DNA of 64,000 bases from Promethearchaeota archaeon (GTDB lineage Archaea > Asgardarchaeota > Lokiarchaeia > Sigyniarchaeales > SOKP01), in contig JAHLWS010000082.1 in assembly GCA_019057795.1 (NCBI GenBank), positions 96,001-160,000 of the forward strand, given 5' to 3'. Positions 19,123-33,373 of this stretch are shown piece after piece. Both the position numbers and the translations under genes were made by a program. A model generated the notes under the pieces. The model did not search any database and had not been told where the DNA came from. It worked only from the letters and a program-made list of their open reading frames with translations. The stretch's first letter is position 1, and each line of letters starts with the position of its first letter.

Positions 19123-19329
19123 ATGCCAAAGAAAAAAAGACCAAAGGATTTAATTCCCTATCCAAAAAGTAGGTTTTTACGTGTAAAATGCCTAAATTGT
19201 GGCAATCAGCAAATAATTTTTGGGTGTTCTTCTACAGATGTGGAATGTTTAGTATGCGGAAAACTATTACTTCAATCTACTGGTGGTAAAGCACGAATTC
19301 TAACCAAGATTTTAGAAGTGCTCTCCTAA
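19123..19329 (+). CDS. rps27e: 30S ribosomal protein S27e
   Basis: [22 protein letters not shown]. Confidence 0.96.
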
Positions 19330-19369
19330 CTAACTTTCACCTTATTTGAGTTTTTATCTATTTATTTGA

Positions 19370-19395
19370 TCGTGAAACCACTCTTATTCTATAAA
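19370..19395 (+). repeat. attL candidate TCGTGAA-ACCACTCT-TATTCTATAAA
   Basis: Shares its 10-bp core with attR; outer arm is complementary to the outer arm of attR. Confidence 0.7.
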
Positions 19396-19726
19396 ATCTC
19401 ATATCAAATATATGAAACATAATTTCAAAACAAAATTTATTAAGAATTGCGAAAAATCAATATTTTTAATTATTTAAGACCAATATATCAATTTTGAGCA
19501 ATCTAAGAATCATAGTTCATTGTATCAAGCAAAATATATTATTTCTATATTAAATAAGAGAAAAGAAGCTATTTTTTAAAAATTAACGAAATTGTTAAAT
19601 GATATAATTATATTATTACAGATTTAAGGGTATCATTACTGTATCTGATATAAATGTATCATAAAAAATCAGCTATGATATTTTTATAACTTAGTTTAAA
19701 TAGATTTTGTAGTAATTATTTGTATA

Positions 19727-20044
19727 ATGTCTGTTCCAGAAAAAATTAGTGAAGTTTTAAAAAAAGAAAGCCGATTGAGTATTGCGGAAATTACTGAAAG
19801 GTTGAATGAAACAAGAAAGAGATTAGTTAGAGAAAGCGTATATAGACTTTTAAAGAGAAAGATTATTGTTAAAGACGGTAAAAAAGGAAAGGCTTATTTA
19901 TATTCACTAAAAGAGAACGCTATAGAACCAAAAATATTATTAAAAGAATTACATTCGATTATGAATAAAAGAATGGATTTTGTTGAAAAACCGAGCGAAA
20001 ATGAAACAAATACTATTAAAATAATTGAGGAAATGCTAAAATAA
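19727..20044 (+). CDS. Winged-helix DNA-binding protein (element)
   Basis: LSIAEITERL..VRESVYRLLKRKII..GKAYLYSL. Confidence 0.7.
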   Translation: MSVPEKISEVLKKESRLSIAEITERLNETRKRLVRESVYRLLKRKIIVKDGKKGKAYLYSLKENAIEPKILLKELHSIMNKRMDFVEKPSENETNTIKIIEEMLK

Positions 20045-20319
20045 TGACCTTGTTAGATAAATTGGAGAAATTCAAAAAAAAAGATTCTCTTCAGGGAGAG
20101 AGAAAGATTTCTACTGAAAGAAAAAAAATTATTATCTCAGAGCAAAAAACCCCGAAATTAGAAAGATTGAATGAAATTCCAAAGATTAACAAAAATCTTG
20201 AATTAATCCTAATAAAAAGCGTTTATGCTAACAGATTCGGTTCTACTACTAATAAATTAAAATCAGATATGCAAAAAGCGATAATAAATGCTTGGAAAAT
20301 AGAATATGAGAAGGGATGA
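20044..20319 (+). CDS. Hypothetical protein (element)
   Basis: Translationally coupled to the upstream gene (TAATG overlap). Confidence 0.6.
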   Translation: MTLLDKLEKFKKKDSLQGERKISTERKKIIISEQKTPKLERLNEIPKINKNLELILIKSVYANRFGSTTNKLKSDMQKAIINAWKIEYEKG

Positions 20320-20548
20320 TTGATTTTTACGTGTTATTACCTCAATTTACGGAAGCATTTAAGAAAAATTTAGAAAAACTGAAAAAATAGTATATTCTTT
20401 TTTTTAAGTTTTTTAGAATAATTAAAGCGTTTTTTAGATGTTTTTGATATTTTTATTGTATATTATACCATATCTAAAATAAAGATTTTTATCGGCTTAA
20501 AATTTTGGAATTTTATAGCATATCTCCGAATATCGTCTAAACTAAATT

Positions 20549-20887
20549 TTAGTAGTTTTCGATATTGAATTTCTTTTTAGATTCTCTGCGGAAACCAGCA
20601 ATGTTTTTTAAATTTTCGCCTCTACCTGTTCCACCGATAACGCATTTCTCAAGCAAACGGTTCTCCCTATCAATAGTTTTTAAATCATCTAATAGGACTT
20701 CCCCCTTTGTATAAGGTTTTGCTTTGTTTTTGGAATAAATTTTGCTCCAATTAGACATCCACGGTACAGTACATTTCTCTGGAGTTAACAGATAATCGGA
20801 ATATGCCTTTGTCTTAGCTCCTGTTTTGGTTAAGGGCTCAGTTCCTGTATCCTTTCTGTATTTTTCTTGAGTTTTTTCTTTGGTCAT
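20549..20887 (-). CDS. Small basic hypothetical protein with motif similar to the Rpo1N C-terminal module
   Basis: Likely start MTKEK at 20887; YRKDTG..GAKTKAYSDY. Confidence 0.6.
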   Translation of the reverse strand: MTKEKTQEKYRKDTGTEPLTKTGAKTKAYSDYLLTPEKCTVPWMSNWSKIYSKNKAKPYTKGEVLLDDLKTIDRENRLLEKCVIGGTGRGENLKNIAGFRRESKKKFNIENY

Positions 20888-21395
20888 TTTTTTCACTTCC
20901 AATATTTTATTTTATTTGTTTTTTGATTTATCATTGTTCAATTACCTATTTAAGTCTTTCTATTCGCTTCCCAGCATTGAGGTTTCAATTTCAGAAAGGC
21001 AAAAAGAGAATTGAGAAAAGCTCTAAGAAGTATGAATATTCCCCGAAAACCAAAAATGATATTCTCAAAAATTTTTATCGGGATGTATGGAAAACCACTA
21101 AGGCAAGAATTAAAAATCGTAGCAATTTAATAGATTTCTGATATAATCTATATAGGTTGTTCAAAACGCTTTTTCAGTATTATTACTAAAAGTTTAAATG
21201 GGTGAAAAACTATCGTTTAAATATGGTTGAAAGCGTTGAAAAATCGGTTTCTGAACGGTTGGAAAATTGAAAAACAACCAATAAAAGTAAAAGGTGTGAA
21301 AATTGCACTTATTACCTTGTTATCAAAACCGACTAAAAAACTTTTTTACAACTAAAAAAACGCAATAAAAAACCCATAAAATAAAGGAATTAAAA

Positions 21396-22259
21396 ATGTT
21401 AAATGAAAATCAAATAAATAAGATTAGAGAAATGCGGGAAAAAGGCTTAACTATTAAGGAAACGGCAAACGCACTTGAAGTTTCAGAATCAAGCGTTAAA
21501 AAATACACTTCAGAAGACTACGAAAAAGATAACGAACTTGATGAGAAAACGGGAAATTCGTTAACGAAACAATTTGATTTAGAAGAATACGATTTTCAAG
21601 ACGACATAGCTCCGTTGGTTTACAAACTAAAAGACCAAGCAAACGAAATAAATGTTACTCTTCACGATTACCTAACCGATATAAGCAATACCATGAACAA
21701 ATTCCTAAGAATAACAAGTAAACCACAATGGTTTTATTATGTGTTTTGCGAATTAGCCAATAGTTTTTCTCTAATAAACGAACACATAGACGCAACAAAA
21801 TTTATGGAAGCCGTTGATAATTGGTATGAAAGGGAAATAGATATGGAAGAGAGCGAGAAGTTTATTATTGATATTGAAACAAAAGCAGAAAAATTAGTTA
21901 AAAACGCTAAAGAAGAATATAATATTTGGCAAGAAAAAATCGACAATGCCCAAAAAGAATACGAAAAAATAACCTCTCTCCATACTGTTATGATAAATAA
22001 TCTATTAGAGAAACCAAATTTAGAGAAACTACAAAAAACAGAAAAGAAGTTAATAGATGCGGAAAATAGACTAAAAGAATTAGAATTATCAAAATTGATT
22101 TTGATAGAAAAATGTAAAATACTCGAACAATCCGATAAAGATAACAAGATTGCCAAAAAAGAAAATATATTGTTAAAAAAAGCGTTTAAAAAACTTAATA
22201 AACTTTTCCCTCAAGAAATAACCGTTATAATCCAAGAGATTGAAAATGAAATCCAATAA
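21396..22259 (+). CDS. N-terminal HTH + coiled-coil protein (element)
   Basis: MREKGLTIKETANALEVSESSVKKY HTH; long heptad-rich C-terminal half. Confidence 0.7.
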   Translation: MLNENQINKIREMREKGLTIKETANALEVSESSVKKYTSEDYEKDNELDEKTGNSLTKQFDLEEYDFQDDIAPLVYKLKDQANEINVTLHDYLTDISNTMNKFLRITSKPQWFYYVFCELANSFSLINEHIDATKFMEAVDNWYEREIDMEESEKFIIDIETKAEKLVKNAKEEYNIWQEKIDNAQKEYEKITSLHTVMINNLLEKPNLEKLQKTEKKLIDAENRLKELELSKLILIEKCKILEQSDKDNKIAKKENILLKKAFKKLNKLFPQEITVIIQEIENEIQ

Positions 22260-22545
22260 TCGTAACGAAAGGAAAAAATTTGTGTTGTCTATCATGAGTT
22301 ATATGGTACATCCATATACTGCAAAAGAGATACACGAATTATGCTCCGTGTCGTTAGGTTCGATATGTTCATCCCTAAAAAGATATTGTTCTCAGGGTTT
22401 ACTAAAAAGAAAAAAAAATAATGCCAAAATATTTGAGTATAATATCACACAAAAAGGAATTGAAAGGTTAGAGTACTTAATGGGGAGTTTAAGTATTAAA
22501 GAGCAAATCCAGTTGTTAGTTCGAGAGAAAATTAGATTGTTATAA
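22240..22545 (+). CDS. Winged-helix DNA-binding protein (element)
   Basis: TAKEIHE..SLKRY..QGLL.R....YNITQKG.ERL. Confidence 0.7.
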   Translation: MKMKSNNRNERKKFVLSIMSYMVHPYTAKEIHELCSVSLGSICSSLKRYCSQGLLKRKKNNAKIFEYNITQKGIERLEYLMGSLSIKEQIQLLVREKIRLL

Positions 22546-22560
22546 CACGCTTATTGCGGA

Positions 22561-22597
22561 AGAGAAAGGGTTTTATGGTCAATTTTTCCCTTTCTCT
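22561..22597 (+). terminator. Hairpin after wHTH gene
   Basis: AGAGAAAGGG / CCCTTTCTCT 10-bp inverted repeat. Confidence 0.45.
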
Positions 22598-22721
22598 ATT
22601 CTCGGTATTTCTAATTTCTATAAAATATGCTTTAAATGAATATTCTTAAATAGTTTTATTCACAATTATTATTTGGATTTGGCATTGACAAAATAATCTT
22701 TAAGCCTTTTTTTTCGCCTTA

Positions 22722-22904
22722 AGGAAGCTCGAAAATTCAATTGTGTTGAACTCCTTCTCTAAAATCGAGCTTCCTAAATTTTTTTCTTTTCATTATTAAT
22801 GTTAATCTATTAAACTTTTCGCTAATTCCTCTCTTCGATTTTTATCGATTTAGTAGAAAAACGCTTAAATAGTTAAAAAACTATTCTAATTCAACACAAT
22901 TGAA
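22722..22904 (+). promoter_or_regulatory. Regulatory region: 11-bp hairpin, paired TTCAA-N5-TTGAA sites, BRE/TATA
   Basis: AGGAAGCTCGA/TCGAGCTTCCT (22722-32, 22765-75); 15-bp IR 22736-50 vs 22890-904; AAAACGC-TTAAATA at ~22858-22871. Confidence 0.55.
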
Positions 22905-24065
22905 AAAAGTGAAGAATCTATTATTCTAAATACCGACAATAATATAATAAAGAGTAATAAAGAGAAATTAGTAAAAATTTTAAAACATCCACCAAGAAAG
23001 TTTCTCTCAATTAAGGAGATAGTAGAAAAAACTGAAATTAACATTAAAAACATCGGAAAATATCTTAAAATCTTAGAAAATGAAGATAAAATAACAATAA
23101 AACACGGAATAACTGATAAACGGAAAAAGCTAATTAAATTTAAACCAAAAAGGGTTCTCTACTTCTTTAAATTTGGAAATAAATACCTACACCATACTCG
23201 CACGAAGCTCAAAAAAGAAGATTTTAAACTTTTGAATATAATAAATGCGAAAGAACCTCAAGATTTAAACCTCCCTAATGATATAGTCAGAATTATAATT
23301 TCCGTATGGGAAAATCAAGAAAAGATTATTGAAGCGGATTTAGTTAATTTTGAAATAGGATTAGGCGGAACTCCGTCCAGAAAGAGAAGTACAATGTGGA
23401 GACCAGAGTTCTTTAATCTTTTCAGTAAACATGCGTTAGAAAAACTTAAATCAAAATATACCATTCACATCTATTCGTTAAAAGAAATCAAATATATGAG
23501 AAATAAAAAAAAATTCCAAAATAAAGCGTATAGACACATCTTTCACGATAAAGAATGGGTTAATTTACTCATAAAAAAAGAAAAGCGTGAAAGATATATC
23601 CCTACTCCGTTTATCTACTACGATTATTTTATATTACGAGTAAATGATATATTACGAATTGAAAATAATGTTATTATTGAACATGAGGGAGAAGAAAACC
23701 AAACAAGGATACCAACAACACGAACGCTTAATATGTCCGTAAAAGCGTTCGAATATTATCATTATATCTATAATTTCATTAGTTTTCACACTACTATTTA
23801 TACTCAAAATGAGCGTGAACCAAATAAAGAACTTATGAGAGAAATGGATATAGTTGTCATGACAAAGGAAATGAATAGAATAGATGATTATTTAGGAATG
23901 CCCACACTCCCAAATTATGAGGACTACATTGACATAATAATTAGTCGTAAGCAAATAATTCCAAAAATTTTATTCGCCCCCCCGCCAAACAATACTACAA
24001 CCCACTCTAATAACATTTTTAAAAAAAAAAGTACTTTCTATTACCCCCATATAAGTATACTATAA
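22899..24065 (+). CDS. wHTH-containing protein of ~388 aa (candidate replication/regulatory protein); true start upstream of 23232
   Basis: Frame open from 22890; hidden N-terminus KEKLVKILK..LSIKEIVEKTEINIKNIGKYLKILENEDKI is a wHTH. Confidence 0.65.
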   Translation: MEKSEESIILNTDNNIIKSNKEKLVKILKHPPRKFLSIKEIVEKTEINIKNIGKYLKILENEDKITIKHGITDKRKKLIKFKPKRVLYFFKFGNKYLHHTRTKLKKEDFKLLNIINAKEPQDLNLPNDIVRIIISVWENQEKIIEADLVNFEIGLGGTPSRKRSTMWRPEFFNLFSKHALEKLKSKYTIHIYSLKEIKYMRNKKKFQNKAYRHIFHDKEWVNLLIKKEKRERYIPTPFIYYDYFILRVNDILRIENNVIIEHEGEENQTRIPTTRTLNMSVKAFEYYHYIYNFISFHTTIYTQNEREPNKELMREMDIVVMTKEMNRIDDYLGMPTLPNYEDYIDIIISRKQIIPKILFAPPPNNTTTHSNNIFKKKSTFYYPHISIL

Positions 24066-24098
24066 TTATATGCTAGGTATCAAAAGTACTTTTTTTTT
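24022..24098. repeat. Long imperfect inverted repeat (cruciform candidate)
   Basis: A9GTACTTT / AAAGTACT9 outer arms; TACC/GGTA and CATATAA/TTATATG inner arms. Confidence 0.6.
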
Positions 24099-24320
24099 CC
24101 TTAAATCTCTTTAAATAAGAGTTTCAAACGCTCTTCTCATATCCGACCTTTTTGTCAAACTCTCAAAAGCCTACGACTATTTCTCCTCTCGTTCCAATTA
24201 CGATAGAAGCCATCTATTCAAGCTCTTAAAAATCAGCGATTAGAACTTCTCTATTCTTAATTTATAACGATTCTAATTTTTAATTTATCTCAAGAGTAAA
24301 ATAATAAGTCTAATTTAATG

Positions 24321-24340
24321 TTTTAAACAATTGTTTAAAA
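24321..24340. repeat. Perfect 20-bp palindrome TTTTAAACAATTGTTTAAAA
   Basis: Read directly from the sequence. Confidence 0.7.
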
Positions 24341-24522
24341 ACGGTTTTTTTTGTTTAAACCTTTGACAAAAAAAGAATAAAAAAATTATTTTAATTTGAG
24401 TTTTTTTATAGCTTCTAATATCTTATCTAATTTCCCTGTAATATGATGAAGATATTCAATCTGTATTACTTGTAATATATTATCATCTAAATCTCCTTTA
24501 GTGAGAATATTTGTGTGTTTTT

Positions 24523-24771
24523 TTAAATAATCTCAATTTCTCTCAGCTCTTCGTATATTTTATCCATCCATATTTTTTGTATTTTTCTTCTTTTTAAATC
24601 TTTTTTTTCTTCTTCTAAAATATTTCTTAATTTATAAGGAGCTTGGTTGAAATATAAGATTAAATATCTAATTAATTTAGATTTATTTATTTTATTATTA
24701 TCGCTAAATATTTTTAACATTCTATCAGTTTCTTCATCCAAACTTAAAGTTACTCTAACAAATTTTTTCAT
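24523..24771 (-). CDS. Ribbon-helix-helix (CopG-like) protein
   Basis: VRVTLSLDEETDRML....NKSKLIRYLI. Confidence 0.75.
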   Translation of the reverse strand: MKKFVRVTLSLDEETDRMLKIFSDNNKINKSKLIRYLILYFNQAPYKLRNILEEEKKDLKRRKIQKIWMDKIYEELREIEII

Positions 24772-25020
24772 TTATTTTTCCTCTATTATTTTATTTATAT
24801 TATATTTAATTAAATATAAGAATGTTTCATAGCTATAAATAGTTGATTAAACTGATTATATATTTATATATTTATATAATTATATAATTATATAACTTTT
24901 CAGTTAATAGATTTAATTCGATTATATTATTGAAAGTTCTTATAGATATTATATTTTTTAAATAAATATAAAACAAAAATAAGAAATAAAAAAAATTATT
25001 TATTATTACATCTTCCGTTC

Positions 25021-25218
25021 TTAAAAAGTAGTGGCAGGAAGTTGTCCATCTATTTGAAGTGATTTAGCCATCGAAAGTAATACATCCATTAATACATAAT
25101 TCTGAGTTGTTATTTGTTTTAAAACATCTAAAATATTTATAATATCAGCAGATTTAGTATTCTTTTTATGATGTTTAATTAAATCTAATGCTTGATAATA
25201 AAATTCTTTATTATCCAT
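25021..25218 (-). CDS. Small hypothetical protein (element)
   Basis: 65-aa ATG ORF with TATA-like sequence upstream. Confidence 0.5.
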   Translation of the reverse strand: MDNKEFYYQALDLIKHHKKNTKSADIINILDVLKQITTQNYVLMDVLLSMAKSLQIDGQLPATTF

Positions 25219-25372
25219 AATAATAAAATTAATTCTATGAGCTTTATAAATATATCAAAATTAACAAAATAAGAAAAGAAATAATTATTTCAATATGAAT
25301 TAAATGGTTCAATTTGTATAGATTGATTCAAACATTTAACCTTAAATACTATTTGTTGTAATAATTATTAAT

Positions 25373-25498
25373 ATGTCAATTGAAAAAGAGAATGCAGAAA
25401 ATTCTGAAATTCTTAAATCATTGATTTTAAGTTATGAGAATATGGAATCTAAATTACTTAGTATCAATGAAGAAATTAAAAAATTAGAAGTGGATTAA
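25373..25498 (+). CDS. 41-aa coiled-coil-like peptide (not in ORF track)
   Basis: MSIEKENAENSEILKSLILSYENMESKLLSINEEIKKLEVD; converges on the integrase remnant. Confidence 0.35.
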   Translation: MSIEKENAENSEILKSLILSYENMESKLLSINEEIKKLEVD

Positions 25499-25507
25499 AA
25501 AAAAAGA

Positions 25508-25678
25508 TTATAATTGAATATCTTGATATGGAAACCATTTATCAAATAATTCAATATATTGTTTATAATTCATCTTTACATAGGATTCCACATTAACATC
25601 TTTAACCTTATGATTTAAAAGAATTTTTCGATCTTCTACTGGGCATCCCATTAATTGTCTGAAAGTATTTAATGTTCT
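25508..25678 (-). pseudogene. 3' remnant of a tyrosine integrase (56 codons)
   Basis: RTLNTFRQLMGCPVEDRKILLNHKVKDVNVESYVKMNYKQYIELFDKWFPYQDIQL, 48/56 aa identical to the C-terminus of 28000..28914. Confidence 0.92.
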
Positions 25679-25970
25679 CTTTTAATCTCATCACCTAATA
25701 ACGTGGAATTTTTTTTTGGAATATCAGTAATCTCTTTCTCAATTGGAAATCATCATAAAGATTCTATCCATTATTGAAAAATGCTGTAATATTTAACAAA
25801 TTAGCTTTTAGGAAAAAAGATATTAAATAGAAATATATATTAATTATAGATAAACATTAATCAAAAATTTTTAAAATTAAGAGATTAAAATTACTTTTTA
25901 AAATATCAAATTATATATGTTTTTAAATAATTATATTTAAAAAATCAATAAAATATCATAAAGAATAGAA

Positions 25971-26708
25971 ATGATTGATTATAATGAAGTTTTCGATAAT
26001 CCATTATTAGTAGAAGTAGTTATTGAAGCTAGATTTCCTCTTTTATTAAAGATTCCTAGAGACATTGCAGATTTTCAAGAAGCTATTAGTGAAGAATTTC
26101 CTGAAACAAATATAATTTATGATAAAAAAATATTTTTTGATTCAAAAGAAGGTTCAGAAGAAATTAGTGAAAAAGCATGGGAATTCGTAAATCCTGAAAA
26201 TAAGACAAAATGCCAAGTTTTTAATCATAGATTCTCTCTATTTTCTAATACATATAAATCATGGGAAGGATATGAATCAAAAGAGGGATTTCTTGATATT
26301 TTAAAATTTAGTTTGAATAATTTTATAAAAGTATATGGTATCAAAAAATTCAACCGTTTAGGTTTAAGATATATTAACAAAATTGAATTAGAAGAAAAAA
26401 ATTCTAAGTGGTTTAAGAAATATTTCATTCCTTTATTTAATCACGATAAATATAGGATTGAAGATCTTTCTCAGAATTCAGTGCGTTTAAGAGTAAAAAA
26501 ACCGAATTCAGCAGAATTAACAATAATGAGTGGTTTTTTAAAACAAGATAATAAAGATTATTATATGTTAGATTTTGATGCTTATTCTCTTAATATTTTA
26601 CAAGAAAATCTATATGAAACTCTTGAAAAATTACATGAGACTATATTAAAAGAATTCCATTCACTAATAACAGGAGATTGTAGAAAAAAAATGAGAGGTG
26701 AAATTTAA
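25971..26708 (+). CDS. TIGR04255-like protein
   Basis: PL.VEVVIEARF, RLGLRYINKI, LDFDAY motifs. Confidence 0.75.
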   Translation: MIDYNEVFDNPLLVEVVIEARFPLLLKIPRDIADFQEAISEEFPETNIIYDKKIFFDSKEGSEEISEKAWEFVNPENKTKCQVFNHRFSLFSNTYKSWEGYESKEGFLDILKFSLNNFIKVYGIKKFNRLGLRYINKIELEEKNSKWFKKYFIPLFNHDKYRIEDLSQNSVRLRVKKPNSAELTIMSGFLKQDNKDYYMLDFDAYSLNILQENLYETLEKLHETILKEFHSLITGDCRKKMRGEI

Positions 26709-27343
26709 TTTTAAAGACAATACATACAAGAAGAATAATTAAACCATCTGCCGAGAAGGGAATTACTGGACAAAAAGATATTCCTGAATGGGCTGATGTT
26801 ACTAAACTGTTAAAAAGAAGAGAGACTAAAAGTGAAGCGTGGCATGTTTCTTCATATAAAACTATTGCTTCATTAGGGGATATTAAATCTGCGGGATTTT
26901 CTATAGAGGTTTTCCCTGAAGAGAGTGCTTATGTCAGATTGACTCATATTATTAGACCATCTAAATCTCAAGAATTTGAAGGATCTACTCCTGAATTTGA
27001 GCCTTTTCCAGTTATAGATTTATCAGATACTGAATATGTTTGGATAGACATAGAAGAAGCCGATTTTTTTAATGAAATTGATTTTTTAAATCATCAATTA
27101 TATGAAAAAGAGGAAATTATAAAAGATCTTGAAATTCAAGTCAAAGTATATAAAAATAAATTAAAGAGATATAAAAGAAAAATCCCCAAATTTGAAAAAT
27201 TGAATCGAATAATTAAAATTAAAAATAAAATTATATCTAAGCTTGAGAAAGATATTATTGTTTATAAGGAGAATATAGATCGGTTTACTATAGACTTTTC
27301 CTTACCAGAAGGTTATTATGGTAATGAAGAGTTTAATGAATAA
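26708..27343 (+). CDS. Hypothetical protein (low-complexity N-terminus + coiled coil); probable non-canonical start near 26708
   Basis: Frame open from 26702, GAGGTGA SD at ~26695-26701; ORF-track start 26939 looks internal. Confidence 0.6.
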   Translation: MLKTIHTRRIIKPSAEKGITGQKDIPEWADVTKLLKRRETKSEAWHVSSYKTIASLGDIKSAGFSIEVFPEESAYVRLTHIIRPSKSQEFEGSTPEFEPFPVIDLSDTEYVWIDIEEADFFNEIDFLNHQLYEKEEIIKDLEIQVKVYKNKLKRYKRKIPKFEKLNRIIKIKNKIISKLEKDIIVYKENIDRFTIDFSLPEGYYGNEEFNE

Positions 27344-27357
27344 TAGGCGAAATTTGT

Positions 27358-27996
27358 ATGGATTTAATAAAAAGTACTCCATTTCCAGATATATTTTGTG
27401 AACCAGAAAAGAAGAATCATATTTTTCAAGGAGATATAATAAAATATACAAATTATATAAATACAAAACAAGAAAATCTAGGATTTATAATTTTATCAAA
27501 TTCCTGTGATTTAGAAAATTTAAAAAATAAAACAATAATATCTATTGCCCCAATATTTCCTTTTAATTTTGTTTTTGACGATATGCTCAGTGAAGCGTTT
27601 AATAGAACTAAAAAGAAAGTGGAAACATTAAAATCTTCTAAGGAAGTAATAGAACACTTTACAAATTTAGTTAGTCAATATATTTATGATGAATCAAATT
27701 ATAAGAAAAAGTATACATTTCTTATTTCTCCTTTATCTAAATTCGAAAATAATCCAACAATTGCTCATATAGAACATATAACCTCAATAAAAATAACAGA
27801 ATTGAAAATAATTCTTCAAAATAGAATAATATCAATTAAACCACCATGGAGAGAAAAATTGGCATTCAAAACAGGATATATATATAATAGAATCGCAACA
27901 TATACCCCTAAATTCAAAGATATAAAGAAATGGTGGATTTCTACATATAATGAAATTTTTGAAATTAAGAAAAAGGAATTGAAAAAATTCATATAA
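27358..27996 (+). CDS. Hypothetical protein with PemK/MazF-like signature (putative toxin)
   Basis: FQGDII...ILSNSCDL...ISIAPI pattern. Confidence 0.5.
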   Translation: MDLIKSTPFPDIFCEPEKKNHIFQGDIIKYTNYINTKQENLGFIILSNSCDLENLKNKTIISIAPIFPFNFVFDDMLSEAFNRTKKKVETLKSSKEVIEHFTNLVSQYIYDESNYKKKYTFLISPLSKFENNPTIAHIEHITSIKITELKIILQNRIISIKPPWREKLAFKTGYIYNRIATYTPKFKDIKKWWISTYNEIFEIKKKELKKFI

Positions 27997-27999
27997 AAT

Positions 28000-28914
28000 T
28001 CAGAGGTTTATATCTTGGTATGGATACCACCTATCATATAACTCTATAAATTGCTTATAATTCAACTTCACATAAGATTCTACATTTACATCTTTAACCT
28101 TATGGTTTAGCAGTATTTTTCGGTCTTCATTTGGACAACCCATTAATTTTCTGAAAGTATTTAATGTTCTCCTGAATGTATGACATGTAATTGTTTTCTT
28201 TATTTCTAAATCATCTAAAACATGCTTTAAATAAGCATTAAACTGTCTTTCTGTATATCTCTTAGATTGAGTTGATAAAAATAACGCTTTTGTTTTAACA
28301 TTTTTTAATTTGCGTTCTTTAAGATAAAGTTTTAGAAATTTAGCTAACTCTTTAGAAATATAATATACCTTTTTTCCTGTTTTACCCATTGTTTTAATAA
28401 ATCTCTTTTCCAAATTTATTTCATTGTAATCAATATTTATTAATTCTCCTTTTCGCATTCCTGTTTCAGAAAAAATCCTAAATATGAGATAATATTTGAA
28501 ATGTCGTAATTTTAAATAATCTAAAATATCTTTTACTTCCTCTTTAGTCATTACAATATCTTTATTTGTTTCAGGTTCTTTATGATTAATCCCATTCCAA
28601 TTAATTGAATGTTTAGGTATAATGACAATAAATTTATATTTTCTATAATATTCCATGCAAAAGTTAAGAAAGCTAATTATTAATGTCCATTTTGTCTTTT
28701 TTGTTCCTAAGCTGATTGTTTCAAGATGTTTTAAATAATCAAAATAATCTATAAGAATATCTGTATTAATATCAAAGATATGTCCTTTATGACCAAAATA
28801 TTTAGGATTAAAAAAATAGTTTAATGATGATTTTCTTGTTTTAACTGATTGATTAGAATGTCTATAATGATTAAGATATTTGCTTATTATTGTATTATTC
28901 ATAGGTTTATTCAT
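28000..28914 (-). CDS. Tyrosine recombinase/integrase
   Basis: ETGMRKGEL (R), GKTG (K), HTFRR (HxxR), LLNH, ESY catalytic Tyr. Confidence 0.95.
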   Translation of the reverse strand: MNKPMNNTIISKYLNHYRHSNQSVKTRKSSLNYFFNPKYFGHKGHIFDINTDILIDYFDYLKHLETISLGTKKTKWTLIISFLNFCMEYYRKYKFIVIIPKHSINWNGINHKEPETNKDIVMTKEEVKDILDYLKLRHFKYYLIFRIFSETGMRKGELINIDYNEINLEKRFIKTMGKTGKKVYYISKELAKFLKLYLKERKLKNVKTKALFLSTQSKRYTERQFNAYLKHVLDDLEIKKTITCHTFRRTLNTFRKLMGCPNEDRKILLNHKVKDVNVESYVKLNYKQFIELYDRWYPYQDINL

Positions 28915-29411
28915 TTCAGTTTATACCTCCCTCTTGGTGTCAGTTCAATTAATCCTTCTTCATGTAATTCAGTAATTATAGAAAATACAATTTCTTTATC
29001 CAAATTAGTTTTTTCAATTATTTCTTTTGGGTTTAATGTATTATGAGCTTTCAATAAATTAATTATAGTATCTTTTGCTGTAGAATCTGCTTTTATTGAG
29101 AATTTCTTAATCAATCTTAAAGTATTATTCATTTCGTTAATCTTATTTGTTCTTTCTAAGGTTAATTCTTGTAATTCCATAATCTTTTTAGTATTCTGAG
29201 TTAATTGTTCTAATATTACAGGATTAAACTGAAAATTTGATGTAGTTTGAAATAATTCGGGGTTCTCTAATTTCCGAACATAATCAAAGATAGCTATGCG
29301 ACAAAAATCAGACATACTAGTATGCTTTTCTTTAGCTAAATCGTTGATTTTATCTTTCTCATCCTGACTCAGAGAAATCTGAATAAAAATTCTTTTATTT
29401 CCATTTGACAT
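28911..29411 (-). CDS. RHH + C-terminal wHTH protein coupled to the integrase (regulator/directionality factor candidate)
   Basis: IQISLSQDEK...SMSDFCR RHH; LNPKEIIEKTNL..GRYKL wHTH; 4-bp overlap with int. Confidence 0.75.
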   Translation of the reverse strand: MSNGNKRIFIQISLSQDEKDKINDLAKEKHTSMSDFCRIAIFDYVRKLENPELFQTTSNFQFNPVILEQLTQNTKKIMELQELTLERTNKINEMNNTLRLIKKFSIKADSTAKDTIINLLKAHNTLNPKEIIEKTNLDKEIVFSIITELHEEGLIELTPRGRYKLK

Positions 29412-29459
29412 TTTTTTTAAACTCTAAAATTAATTTTTATTATAATAATAGCAACACAC

Positions 29460-29505
29460 TCATATAAATGTTATGAAAATTTATATGATAACCACTCTTT
29501 CACGA
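29460..29505 (+). repeat. attR candidate TTTATATGATA-ACCACTCT-TTCACGA with adjacent 10-bp IR (TCATATAAAT/ATTTATATGA)
   Basis: Read directly; the IR overlaps the TATA-like box of the RHH-int operon. Confidence 0.7.
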
Positions 29506-29535
29506 ACTTAGATCATATATTAAAAATATTTTAGT

Positions 29536-30549
29536 TTAGTCGAAATACGTCTTTACAGCGTGTACAAAAGATTTTATGTTTTTTATAGGTGTGTCTCCAG
29601 TAATTTCACATCCTGGTGCGACTATAAAGCGTGGATCACCTCTACTTGCATTTAAAGCTGCGTGAACTGCTACTTCAATTTCTTTTGGTGTGCCAGATGG
29701 AAGTAATTTAACATGATCAATATTTCCAGCCACACCTATCTTATGATCAAACAATTCTTGGGTTTTAGTAATGTCAACATATGGTCCAATGCTCAATGTA
29801 TTTAACCTATCAATTTTTTTAAGATAAGGCGCAACAACATTTAGATGTGACGTTATCTTTCCACACATATGAAGGATATTATAGTCATACACATTAAGGA
29901 TCTCAGGTAGATAATCTATACTGAATTCTTTTACATGAGTAGGTCTCAACATCTGAAGATCATGTTCACAGATTACAAAGATTGTTGCTCCAGCTTCTTT
30001 CAAAACAGAAATGTACTCCTTAATTATTTCAATAGTTCGTTTGACTATTTGGTGTACAAAATTAGGGTTTTTTACTAGCCTTCTTATCAAAGCTTTATAA
30101 GGCATTAGCTGTAAGCTAAAAGTTATTGGTCCCGTCATGAAAGCTGCTACAGGGACATTAGCTTCCTCGGCAAGAATTCGCGTGCCTTCAATCAAAACTC
30201 TTGTACTTTCTGTTAACATGAAATCTGGTATTTCTAATCTTTCTAAATCACTCTCTGATTCAATCACATATTTGGTAATCCAGGGGTTTTTATTAGGCGG
30301 ATAAGTAACTTCTGCCCCACAAGCTTCGGCAACCGGCCAGCTTGGTTCAACCTGAATTGTTGTTATATCATAACCATACAAATCCAATGCTTTTAGGTGA
30401 GCATTTGCAGCTTTTTTCGCATCCTTATACATACTATTATAAGTCAGCCTATTTATGATCCCCGCATGATCCCCGATTTGGGGAAATACTGGTGGTCGAT
30501 CAACTGAACGACCTTTCAAAGCAGCAAAAATACGATCAAATGAATCCAT
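29536..30549 (-). CDS. UroD/MtaA-family methylcobalamin-dependent methyltransferase-like protein
   Basis: DRPPV, AEACGA, ILHMCG, AGNID, APGCEI. Confidence 0.85.
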   Translation of the reverse strand: MDSFDRIFAALKGRSVDRPPVFPQIGDHAGIINRLTYNSMYKDAKKAANAHLKALDLYGYDITTIQVEPSWPVAEACGAEVTYPPNKNPWITKYVIESESDLERLEIPDFMLTESTRVLIEGTRILAEEANVPVAAFMTGPITFSLQLMPYKALIRRLVKNPNFVHQIVKRTIEIIKEYISVLKEAGATIFVICEHDLQMLRPTHVKEFSIDYLPEILNVYDYNILHMCGKITSHLNVVAPYLKKIDRLNTLSIGPYVDITKTQELFDHKIGVAGNIDHVKLLPSGTPKEIEVAVHAALNASRGDPRFIVAPGCEITGDTPIKNIKSFVHAVKTYFD

Positions 30550-30658
30550 TATGTATAATATTCACTTTAATTTATAAAAATAAAAATTAGAGACTAAATA
30601 AATCTAATATTTTTAAATAATTAAATATAAAATATTCTGAAGTTTTCTACTTCTGAAG

Positions 30659-31219
30659 ATGCCATTCTTTCAAATAAAATATGACGATGTTTATTTTGAT
30701 CCTAAAGTTCAGGAGATGTGTATTTCACCTAGTTTTAAGTGTCCTTTTTATGAGCATTCGTGGAGTTGTCCTCCAAATTCACCTTATCTTGAAAAAGCTA
30801 TGTCAACTTACACAGAATTTTATTTAATCTACTCTACATTTGATCTAGAAGAATACATAAAGAAAGAAAAGGAAAAGACAAACAGATCAGAATTTTTCAT
30901 TAAAAACACATTTTTGCTCACCAAAAGTTTCGAATTAAATGATTTGGAAACTGAATTCGATAAATTCTTAACCCAATATAATAAAAAGTATAAAAAACGA
31001 CTTCTTTTGTACGATGGGACATGTAAATACTGTAAAATTCAAAACGCGGGAAATTGCACCTTTGATTCTGGCGAACCATGCCGTTTTCCAAGAATGATAA
31101 GATATTCTATGGAAGCTGTAGGGATTGAAGTTATAAGGACAGTACTTGAACTGAATTTGGATGTTAAGTATCCCTCCAATAAATATTCATTTAGATTTGG
31201 CTTAGTTTGCTTTAAATAA
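30659..31219 (+). CDS. DUF2284-like metal-binding protein
   Basis: C..Y..SWSCPP, GTCKYC, CRFP...YSMEAVGI. Confidence 0.8.
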   Translation: MPFFQIKYDDVYFDPKVQEMCISPSFKCPFYEHSWSCPPNSPYLEKAMSTYTEFYLIYSTFDLEEYIKKEKEKTNRSEFFIKNTFLLTKSFELNDLETEFDKFLTQYNKKYKKRLLLYDGTCKYCKIQNAGNCTFDSGEPCRFPRMIRYSMEAVGIEVIRTVLELNLDVKYPSNKYSFRFGLVCFK

Positions 31220-31242
31220 AAAAAAAAATAAAATTAAAGTAA

Positions 31243-32511
31243 TTAATATTTTCCGTATTCCATTACAGCTTCAGTCATCGCTTTTACGTTTTCTACTTTC
31301 GCGTCGCCCATTCCATTAAATTCGGTTGTTACTATGTAACCCCCGCCAGGTTTGTACTTGTTTATCGTTTCTTTCATGTGATCTTTGACCTGTTGGGGCG
31401 TTCCACTAATGAGAAGTGATGAAAGGATGCCACCAGCGATACAATATTTATCTCCTACAACTTCTTTTACTTTTGATAGGTCTGTTTTATCAAACCAAAG
31501 AATTACTTTCCCTTCCGGAAGTTCCGTAAGAGTGTCTAATAAATGATCCATACGGCCTTGGAAGCATAAAAGAGGCGTAAAATCTGCTTCAATTAATTCG
31601 TTGACAATTCTTTTTATATAAGGGAAATGGAATTCCCTATATTGTTCAGGTGATAAATATGTATTATACCACGTCGGGCAGAACACCCTACGAGAGCCTG
31701 TTGTTTGCTTTGAGATAGCACCTGTCAATTTCCCCACCGCTGCTAGTACGCCAGTTAAGGCATCACAAGCTGCTTTGACTTTCTCGGGCATTCTATAGAG
31801 ATCTAATGTAAGTTTATCAAAATCTCTTAACCATGCTCCAATAAAATCTAATGGATTTGGAGTCAAAGCTAAATACCATGGAAGCCAAGCCTCTTCTTTC
31901 ATTTTCCCAATAAATTCCCCGAAAAAAGCTGGAAATTTAGCAAGTTCTTGACCCATCTTTAATAAAGTACCTACTCCTGTTGGAGAATCTAAATTTGCTA
32001 AATTCTTATATGCTCTCGGCACAACGGTTTTCATGAGAAATTCAAAGGGTTGCTCTATAAGGCTATCGTATTCATCATCGTTCATAACGGGCTTGTCCAT
32101 AACGAATTGTGATTCAACATTTTTTCCTACTTCTCTACCTGGATTTGAAGAGTAAACATCAGCTAAAATATCGTGTGATGCACCTCCAGCTAGAACGGAA
32201 GAGACAGCAACTCCTATAGCTAAATCGGCATCATATCCTGCTAACGCTAGTCCCAGAGGTACGCTTTCAAATGATCGAAGGGAATTATATCCATCCCAGT
32301 TAAAATCTCTAGCGAATTTAGCCATGACTTCTATGTATTTATTATTATCATGGAACATATCCTCATAACTTACTCCAGCATATTTTGCGGGAAAATAAGT
32401 CGTGTTTATCGCTATAGGAACTCTATCCGGTTCTTTTGCTGCTGCTGCGGTTTCTAATCTCTCTAATTTCGCTTTATAAATTTCTTCAGCATTGTCCATT
32501 ATTCTAGGCAC
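31243..32511 (-). CDS. Uroporphyrinogen decarboxylase-family (methyltransferase-like) protein
   Basis: EPDRVP, DLYRMPEKV, CIAGG...GTP, PGGGYI. Confidence 0.85.
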   Translation of the reverse strand: MPRIMDNAEEIYKAKLERLETAAAAKEPDRVPIAINTTYFPAKYAGVSYEDMFHDNNKYIEVMAKFARDFNWDGYNSLRSFESVPLGLALAGYDADLAIGVAVSSVLAGGASHDILADVYSSNPGREVGKNVESQFVMDKPVMNDDEYDSLIEQPFEFLMKTVVPRAYKNLANLDSPTGVGTLLKMGQELAKFPAFFGEFIGKMKEEAWLPWYLALTPNPLDFIGAWLRDFDKLTLDLYRMPEKVKAACDALTGVLAAVGKLTGAISKQTTGSRRVFCPTWYNTYLSPEQYREFHFPYIKRIVNELIEADFTPLLCFQGRMDHLLDTLTELPEGKVILWFDKTDLSKVKEVVGDKYCIAGGILSSLLISGTPQQVKDHMKETINKYKPGGGYIVTTEFNGMGDAKVENVKAMTEAVMEYGKY

Positions 32512-33127
32512 CTCCTACCCAATTTTTGATTATTTTTACACCATCTATTACATCATTAACCCAAGCATCCGCCCCTACATAATCACAAACACTCTGATCC
32601 GTCCGTTCTCCTCCAATTATGACTTTTACTTTCTCTCTTAAATTACCACTTGCAATTGTTTCTATAGCATTCTTCATAGGCTCTATTGATAATGTAAGCA
32701 ACCCACTCATACCTACAACAAGTGGATTATGTTCTTTAATCGCATCTACAAATTTCTGAGCGGGAACATCTACACCTAAATCAATAACCTCAAAACCTTC
32801 AGCTTTTAAGAAGTTAATTGCTATATCTTTCCCTATATTATGTATGTCTCCCTCTACTGTTCCTATGACTACCTTTCCCAAACTTTCAGTAGCAGCTCCA
32901 ACTAATTTTGGCATTAATAGTTCCATAGCTTGATTGAAAATCTCTCCTGCCATAATTAGGTCTGTTAAAAATATTGTATCACCAGATCCTTTGCCTATCT
33001 CTGTCATACCTATTCTACATGCTTCCAAAACTTTGATGGGATCTTCACCAGCATCAAGTTTTTCTTTTACTAATTTTAAAACCTTTTCTTCCTCTAAATT
33101 TGTAATTGCTTCAGATATTTCATTCAT
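32504..33127 (-). CDS. Corrinoid (B12-binding) protein, MtaC/MttC-like
   Basis: GTVEGDIHNIGK (DxHxxG), DLGVDVP, SGLLT, IIGG. Confidence 0.92.
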   Translation of the reverse strand: MNEISEAITNLEEEKVLKLVKEKLDAGEDPIKVLEACRIGMTEIGKGSGDTIFLTDLIMAGEIFNQAMELLMPKLVGAATESLGKVVIGTVEGDIHNIGKDIAINFLKAEGFEVIDLGVDVPAQKFVDAIKEHNPLVVGMSGLLTLSIEPMKNAIETIASGNLREKVKVIIGGERTDQSVCDYVGADAWVNDVIDGVKIIKNWVGGA

Positions 33128-33373
33128 ACTTATTTTACCTCACTTTAAGTTAATATTATAATACGAAAAAAAGTATTGCATTCGAATTTTTTTTTTAGGC
33201 TTTAAACTTTTTTCTTATATCTCATAAATAGGAAACTTATCCTATTAAATAAATTTTACCAGATTTGAAGTCTAGTTAAACATTTATCAATATTCAATAA
33301 GCTTTGCATAAAAATTGAAGATATTTCCCCAATATCGAGTTTTTTAGAAACTTTTTCAGGAGAATATTAAATT

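Follow-up and report, generated by a model that had tools for sequence, protein, structure and literature searches.

An integrative element with site-rebuilding ends in a Loki-type Asgard archaeon, and the multi-copy palindrome family at which it resides

Among described systems, archaeal elements with non-partitioning (pNOB8-type, XerA-like) integrases, which include elements with intergenic targets (PMC8371274), and the integrated elements of Atabeyarchaeia (PMC11529989) provide the closest comparison for the element described here. It occupies positions 19376-29499 of a 64,000-nucleotide (nt) stretch of DNA (the window; positions 96,001-160,000 of contig JAHLWS010000082.1) from a 4.95-Mb Loki-type Asgard metagenome-assembled genome (the source genome, G000). 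Like the described elements, it is small, encodes a PF00589 integrase of its own whose gene is not split by integration, is bounded by short exact end repeats, lies at a target that is not a tRNA gene, and carries plasmid-like DNA-binding genes such as CopG/ribbon-helix-helix (RHH). It differs from them in that its target is a perfect palindrome of Xer/dif geometry belonging to a conserved multi-copy family, and in that no replication gene is recognisable. The element is a further member of this known class and, taken alone, is ordinary. Very probably, it was inserted by its own XerA-like integrase through conservative site-specific recombination at a host palindrome that follows rps27e.

The nearest analogues of the palindrome target system are Xer-dependent dif modules on Acinetobacter plasmids (PMC6449649). 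Xer/dif-type core sites are composed of two inverted repeats around a 6-nt spacer (PMC8371274), and the Asgard palindromes share inverted arms around a 6-bp centre with Xer/dif sites, integrative mobile elements exploiting Xer (IMEX), and the Acinetobacter plasmid modules (PMC6449649, PMC13141974). As in the Acinetobacter case, there are many sites per replicon, these sites bound variable modules, and adjoining blocks change without a recombinase of their own. In contrast to the Xer/dif systems, the Asgard sites are chromosomal, archaeal, and orthologous across genera, their arms are perfectly symmetric rather than divided into XerC and XerD halves, and the elements bring their own integrase. 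The latter property also separates the present element, whose integrase is intact, from IMEX, which have no recombinase of their own. No description of the palindrome family as a target set was found in PMC8371274, PMC11529989, PMC8813620, PMC11840125, or a 2026 preprint.

The features that define the ends of the element are listed below (aa, amino acids; wHTH, winged helix-turn-helix).

19123..19329, plus strand: rps27e, left host flank (PF01667, E 6.6e-21)
19370..19391: attL core, consisting of host arm TCGTGAAA (19370-19377), spacer CCACTC (19378-19383), and element arm TTATTCTA (19384-19391); alignments with relatives reach 19385
19399..19415: subterminal palindrome of the left end, TCATAT-CAAAT-ATATGA, with 15 nt between it and the spacer (direct reading)
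28000..28914, minus strand: tyrosine integrase, 304 aa, intact (PF00589, E 3e-22; XerA 5HXY alignment; invariant columns)
28911..29411, minus strand: RHH plus winged-helix protein, 166 aa, overlapping the integrase start by 4 nt (RHH_1 above cut-off; MarR-type wHTH)
29460..29476: subterminal palindrome of the right end, TCATATAAATGTTATGA, with 15 nt between it and the spacer, overlapping the minus-strand TATA-like TTTATATG upstream of the RHH-integrase operon
29484..29505: attR core, consisting of element arm TATGATAA (29484-29491), spacer CCACTC (29492-29497), and host arm TTTCACGA (29498-29505); homology to genomes G066 and G067 begins at 29490
29536..30549, minus strand: URO-D family (MtaA-like) gene, right host flank (PF01208, E 1.8e-56)

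The repeat AACCACTCTT is present at 19376-19385 and 29490-29499 and has no further exact copy in the window. The span of the element is 10,114 bp when one copy of the repeat is counted, and 10,104 bp separate the repeats; the GC content between them is 25.2%, compared to 31-33% in the 10 kb on each side, which marks the base composition as foreign. The left junction (19368-19396) reads gatcgtgaAACCACTCTTattctataaaa and the right junction (29482-29509) reads tatatgatAACCACTCTTtcacgaactt. Joining the outer flanks gave TCGTGAA-ACCACTCT-TTCACGA, the sequence written in an earlier description of this locus made from the letters alone (the original prediction). The symmetry noted there was upheld, but the division into 7-bp arms and an 8-bp spacer was not, because at the 8-bp spacer as drawn an A before and a T after also pair; with one extra base on each side, the core becomes 8+6+8. 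The rebuilt empty site is thus TCGTGAAA-CCACTC-TTTCACGA, with arms from 19370-19377 and 29498-29505. The inner ends, TTTATATGATA and TATTCTATAAA, are complementary at 9 of 11 positions, as had been stated, and the rebuilt attP core is TATGATAA-CCACTC-TTATTCTA. The subterminal palindromes were likewise found in place (TCATATCAAATATATGA at 19399-19415 and TCATATAAATGTTATGA at 29460-29476). With a TCATA..TATGA palindrome at a distance of exactly 15 nt on either side of the spacer, attP as rebuilt spans ~70 bp and is symmetric. In agreement with the original prediction, the flanking rps27e and URO-D family genes are convergent, and the target is not a tRNA, there being no tRNA gene in the 64-kb window.

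An uninterrupted target was looked for in relatives, using the rpl44e-rps27e flank as a query in 40 relatives of the source genome; G066 and G067 were located by a search with the palindrome pattern. The predicted empty site is intact after rps27e in 15 related genomes (13 loci plus G066 and G067). The 13 loci with an uninterrupted 22-mer after rps27e align with the window up to base 19385 or hold the intact 22-mer. In the more distant congeners, the 22-mer directly follows rps27e, while in G005, G009, and G020 a GNAT-like gene insert (~1.1 kb) lies between rps27e and the intact 22-mer; the remaining intergenic DNA of these loci is unalignable. In G066 and G067, rps27e and the intact site are followed by uroD, DUF2284, and a second uroD (84-96% protein identity); the URO-D flank gene beside the intact site is 95-96% aa identical to that of the window, and base 29490 is the exact point at which nucleotide homology to the window ends or starts. 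The predicted boundaries were therefore matched base for base, as expected of a site-specific insertion, and it is the uninterrupted site in relatives, and not repeat statistics alone, that shows the boundaries not to be due to chance. An integrative element whose ends rebuild recombination sites is confirmed.

For comparisons of distribution, the genus comprised 41 genomes besides the source genome, and the family set comprised 135 genomes with the source genome included (134 others). None of the 41 other genus genomes has the element itself, which implies that the insertion is recent; the integrase is missing from them too, except for two with related elements elsewhere. The test of whether the part at 19.7-24.3 kb occurs in strains lacking the integrase module was also passed: two proteins of this part, a 287-aa protein and the product of a 277-aa open reading frame (ORF), have no homologue in the 134 other family genomes, with or without the integrase. 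The interpretation of the locus as an integrative element is supported, with three corrections: the core is 8+6+8, the element is composite, and the target belongs to a multi-copy palindrome family.

Right of the site, the genes at window positions 29500-33360 (the uroD-like gene, DUF2284, and the second URO-D gene) are present in G066 and G067, partial in G005 and G009, and absent from G020, G014, and G024, where the palindrome is directly followed by the gene at 33370. At the G066 locus (C170, 809-916 and 2097-2153), rps27e is followed by the GNAT-like gene, after which the last ~19 rps27e codons appear a second time, immediately ahead of the palindrome. This second 3' end is a gene-end duplication left by cassette insertion. 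The GNAT gene is also carried by G005, G009, and G020, where an rps27e remnant was not seen.

The integrase scored 79.5 bits against the catalytic domain PF00589 (cut-off 27.1). Its catalytic residues R154, H245, R248, H271, and Y281 align with those of XerA 5HXY and are invariant in 26 homologues. XerA was both the best NCBIfam match and the best solved structure (5HXY); the protein is not a XerA equivalog, however, since it scored 79.7 bits against the NF040815 cut-off of 220, and a better XerA candidate of the source genome is encoded on contig C56. Nor is the integrase of the SSV type (partitioning), because its gene is unbroken, with the att core outside it, 578 bp upstream of the start and beyond the RHH gene. 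About 250 homologous integrases were retrieved, and the integrase clade is present in 16 of 154 genomes. A genome-contig search with the integrase for further related loci returned none, and a metagenome-contig search returned two short contigs without a usable att site.

The N-terminus of the RHH-wHTH protein is similar to the pRN1 copy-control protein ORF56 (2K9I), and its partner in the G005 element is 54% identical. A TATA-like box 50-60 nt upstream of the RHH gene is overlapped by the right subterminal palindrome, and this palindrome, TCATATAAATGTTATGA, is identical in three elements. Judging from the overlap of palindrome and promoter, the protein would be an autoregulator and possibly a directionality factor. 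In the proposed reaction, the element integrase (28000-28914) would recombine the attP core with host TCGTGAAA-CCACTC-TTTCACGA downstream of rps27e, with strand exchange occurring in or at the edges of the common 6-bp spacer CCACTC. Tyrosine recombinases cleave at spacer edges and need identical overlap regions. The co-transcribed RHH-wHTH protein may bind the subterminal palindrome over the operon promoter, and so govern how the integrase is expressed and perhaps also in which direction the reaction runs.

When the source genome was searched with the rebuilt site with mismatches allowed, all matches had perfect arms and differing centres. The pattern CGTGAAA-N6-TTTCACG has 12 further copies in this genome (expectation ~0.01), and of the spacer lengths from 0 to 15 that were scanned, only 6 was found. 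All copies are intergenic, and the 13 spacers are all different, with 56% GC in a genome of 31% GC. The pattern is present in 41 of 41 other genus genomes, at 3-14 copies each, and in 127 of the 135 family genomes; outside the family it is sporadic, and a reversed-pattern control gave 0 or 1. Arm variants with one or two mismatches were no commoner than at other spacings, and the exact arm sequence is therefore what is kept. Spacers recur across genomes at orthologous places: at the rps27e site, CCACTC predominates, CCACCC or CCCCTC is found in some genomes, and one genome has GGCTTG. The neighbours of the palindromes have no common function and are arranged divergently, in tandem, or convergently.

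Two explanations of the family were considered. Promoter operators of a regulon were rejected as unlikely, given the unrelated neighbours and several convergent pairs, and selection on hairpin structure alone is not supported, there being no excess of compensatory arm variants.

With 8-11-bp arms and a 6-bp spacer, the palindromes have the inverted repeats and 6-nt spacer of archaeal dif. They lack its TAA-N6-TTA signature (PMC11840125) and its single copy number, since the host arms read GAAA-N6-TTTC and there are ~13 copies; the attP of the element does read TAA-N6-TTA. Host and element arms have the inner bases beside the spacer in common (R-W-A-A / N6 / T-T-W-Y), while the outer TCGT, strictly conserved in the host arm, is not common to the element arms. 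We take this to mean that the integrase would read the inner arm bases and that something in the host would keep the whole arm. Both arms, CGTGAAA and TTTCACG, lie within the bacterial parS consensus, in the opposite order and with no spacer, which is a lead towards a host binding protein and not a finding.

Some palindromes are located 45-90 nt downstream of tRNA genes or tRNA-like 3' ends, or 0.5-1.4 kb downstream after insertions. These include palindromes near C38:86750-86781 of the source genome, on contig C153 of G020 (~90 nt from the site), and at locus L096 (10454-10525). Near such palindromes, ARAGORN called only tRNA-Gly(TCC); the other tRNA-like ends may be intron-containing tRNAs.

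Five related elements, whose integrases are 51-75% identical to that of the window, occupy other palindrome copies with other spacers. In G005, an integrase 72% identical to the window's is followed by AAGAGAATAA-TCCCGA-TTTCACGA, and the intact TCCCGA palindrome is found in the syntenic region of the source genome and of G009. In G051, an integrase 75% identical to the window's is followed by AAAGGAATAA-GTTCAG-TTTCACGA, and an intact GTTCAG palindrome with a matching right flank is present in G009. Between G005 and G051, the integrases share 87% identity and the element arms are near-identical, including the CATATAAATGTTATGA motif, while the spacers have nothing in common. A second integrase of the source genome (51% identical to the window's) belongs to a 16.4-kb element on contig C22 that is bounded by the 14-bp repeat TAAAAGAAACGTTT; five congeners retain its target, rebuilt as GATCGTAAAA-GAAACG-TTTCACGA, in intact form. 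Elements with a CGTGAAA arm at the junction are also present in G104 and G091, which represent two other genera. More distant family integrases have no CGTGAAA arm at the junction, and the association with palindromes thus holds for a subclade, not for all homologues. Pattern scans for the conserved element arm gave only the three known elements and chance matches.

The likeliest rule would be that the arms serve for recognition and the spacer as the address, given that tyrosine recombinases need identical overlap regions. Identical arms with different central overlaps, the centre deciding which sites pair, are known from heterospecific lox/FRT variants and from multi-site integration of the CTnDOT type; the lox variants are engineered, and CTnDOT tolerates mismatched overlaps. 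In contrast to CTnDOT, the two junctions have the same overlap in each of the Asgard elements with both ends known, which are two only, the window element and the C22 element.

To see how DNA around the palindromes changes between genomes, 3-kb loci around them were compared between the source genome and its three closest genomes (86-94% identical DNA). In ~10 of the 12 informative loci, an insertion, deletion, or replacement of 0.5-5 kb starts no more than ~100 nt from the palindrome, and in at least four the break lies within 0-2 nt of the outer arm edge. Apart from one small exception, control stretches of 10-12 kb in the same genomes were collinear. Where assemblies are fragmented, palindromes are often found at contig ends, and paired contigs overlap by the assembler k-mer across the site, which indicates that the assembly graph branches there. 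Most inserted blocks beside palindromes have neither an integrase nor a second half-site; at the far ends of integrase-free insertions, a second half-site was absent on contigs C52, C34, C38, and C70. The exception is a 5.1-kb integrase-free block of the source genome (C33:2714-7870; locus L194), which contains nuclease-like and other defence-like genes, adjoins a DUF262-like gene, and lies between the full palindrome TCGTGAAA-CGGTTA-TTTCACGA and the 19-bp repeat ACGGTTATTTCACGAAAAT (spacer plus right arm). These comparisons support a putative recombination activity at the palindromes beyond integrase-bearing elements. At another locus of the source genome (C70:30106-34995), 4.9 kb of DNA is found where G009 has the GTTCAG palindrome and G051 has the related element; no palindrome or half-site is left there.

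Proteins of the window were compared with Pfam, NCBIfam, PHROGs, and PADLOC. Consistent with the original prediction, no capsid, packaging, or conjugation gene was found in the element by any of the four, nor was a replication initiator, a terminase, or a known defence family; orphan genes remain. Besides the integrase operon, the element encodes orphans and small proteins of the HTH, wHTH, and RHH types, along with a three-gene cassette that begins with the gene for a TIGR04255 protein, arranged as follows.

19727..20044, plus strand: 105-aa winged-helix protein (weak HTH_9, Penicillinase_R, and ArsR matches, all below cut-off)
20044..20319, plus strand: 91-aa ORF, no family
20549..20902, minus strand: 117-aa ORF, no family
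20988..21244: ~260 nt, 74-82% identical to C3:1937-2192 of the source genome
21396..22259, plus strand: 287-aa orphan with an N-terminal resolvase-type HTH (PF02796, E 1e-6) and a long lysine/glutamate-rich tail
22240..22545, plus strand: 101-aa winged-helix protein (Lrs14/MarR-like, weak)
22890..24065, plus strand: 391-codon open frame, orphan; first canonical start at 23232 (277 aa)
24523..24771, minus strand: 82-aa RHH protein (PF12651, E 1e-3, just below cut-off)
24855..24895: five tandem copies of ATTATATA, in a stretch of 18-20% GC
25518..25679, minus strand: integrase 3'-end remnant (residues ~245-304), 162 bp, 85% nucleotide identical to 28010-28171, with a sharp inner boundary
25971..26708, plus strand: TIGR04255 family protein (E 2.4e-29, above cut-off), first gene of the three-gene cargo cassette
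26939..27343, plus strand: lysine/glutamate-rich ORF, 134 aa from the first canonical start
27358..27996, plus strand: 212-aa protein, phrog_4575 (unknown function)

The N-terminal 114 codons of the 391-codon frame are winged-helix-like and contain no ATG, GTG, or TTG. The frame is possibly decaying; its start could be unusual or decayed, or a splice could be present unseen. In a Protein Atlas search, the 277-aa ORF gave nothing above noise. Contig C3, which shares ~260 nt with window positions 20988-21244, is 7 kb long and has no terminal overlap, and it may be another mobile element with a common regulatory region. The five ATTATATA units sit in the most AT-rich part of the element, and this region could be unwinding or origin-like. 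No Rfam family was found in the window, and no CRISPR-spacer-like matches to the element were found in the source genome.

The element looks like a composite, or mosaic. The remnant at 25518-25679 repeats the last ~55 codons of the integrase gene, and the TIGR04255 cassette, which matched no PADLOC defence family, is placed between this remnant and the working integrase gene. In a relative from Loki's Castle (84% integrase identity), unrelated genes occupy the position of the cassette. We lean towards a history in which a cassette bringing a replacement integrase 3' end was inserted, because the rps27e/GNAT locus of G066 has the same layout (whole gene, cassette, displaced 3' end). Another possible history, which we do not favour, is a tandem fusion: two related elements would have entered the same palindrome in succession, and a later deletion would have taken out the middle att site as well as the RHH-wHTH gene and the integrase N-terminus of the left element, so that a 6.3-kb integrase-less remnant (19386-25680) adjoins a 3.8-kb element (25681-29489). 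The second integrase 3' end, 85% identical to the working copy and sharply bounded on its inner side, would be explained in this way, as would the lack of overlap between the left and right gene sets and the fact that the cargo beside the integrase differs in every relative. Against this, neither a middle att site nor additional integrase sequence remains, the G066 locus has its layout without a second element, which favours cassette insertion into the integrase 3' end, and the two ends mirror each other, each having its palindrome at 15 nt from the spacer, which is what a single attP would give.

Several observations weigh against insertion of the element by its own integrase, against its continued activity, or against the role ascribed to the spacer. 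In IMG/VR viral contigs, no related integrase was found with either the single protein or the 26-sequence alignment as a query, and viral- and metagenome-contig searches gave no free circle, attP junction, or excision product. The left 6 kb consist of orphan genes, one of them without a canonical start, and the element may be decaying. For the related elements with a single known junction, the spacer could be host-derived even if the integrase tolerated mismatches. The absence of a circle from these searches, the orphan genes, the frame without a start codon, and the integrase fragment would all fit a fixed, inactive relic unable to excise. We regard a relic as unlikely, since the integrase is full-length with all of the invariant family residues, both att cores are perfect, and absence from all 41 other genus genomes points to a recent insertion. 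Quite improbable, in our opinion, is that the palindromes are dif-like sites of a host recombinase such as XerA, which would drive integration as in bacterial IMEX and make the element integrase secondary. The dif geometry of inverted arms around a 6-bp spacer (PMC8371274), the much wider distribution of the palindromes (127/135 genomes) than of the integrase clade (16/154), the integrase-free insertions and deletions that abut palindromes, and the outer TCGT that is kept in host arms and is not common to element arms are all consistent with it, but every palindrome-borne element found carries an integrase of this one clade, and the palindromes lack the archaeal TAA-N6-TTA signature (PMC11840125). 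Integration by the element's own integrase accounts best for the window element.

The function of the palindromes themselves is a separate matter. They could be sites of a host DNA-binding protein, or RNA hairpins, without any role in recombination, in which case the elements would exploit them and the nearby insertions and deletions would be ordinary intergenic turnover. Strict arms without compensatory variants do suggest recognition by a sequence-specific protein, and the sites are kept at orthologous places across genera. This explanation is nevertheless doubtful, because the neighbours are of unrelated function and in all orientations, including convergent, which makes a promoter operator unlikely, because ~10 of 12 informative loci break within ~100 nt of the palindrome while the 10-12 kb controls are unbroken, and because assemblies branch at palindromes. 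We tentatively propose instead that these strictly conserved, dif-shaped palindromes, at ~5-14 per family genome and each with a GC-rich 6-bp spacer of its own, may be addressable recombination pads: the integrase clade would read their arms, pick a pad by the 6-bp overlap of attP, and be retargeted by a change of six bases. The same pads would be where strains swap integrase-free blocks, pointing to a host recombinase or a chromosome-organising protein.

The target matters more than the element, since these conserved multi-copy palindromes of Xer type mark places of DNA gain and loss. Their strict arm conservation in genomes without the integrase would imply a host protein that binds the arms. 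If the rule by which arms are recognised and spacers serve as addresses is true, the palindromes would parallel, in nature, the engineered heterospecific lox sites, and it would be understandable how related integrases came to use several chromosomal sites with an unchanged protein. The 20-mer pattern would then be a handle for variable islands and integrated elements in fragmented Asgard assemblies, and, if these organisms became genetically tractable, the palindromes would serve as defined landing sites.

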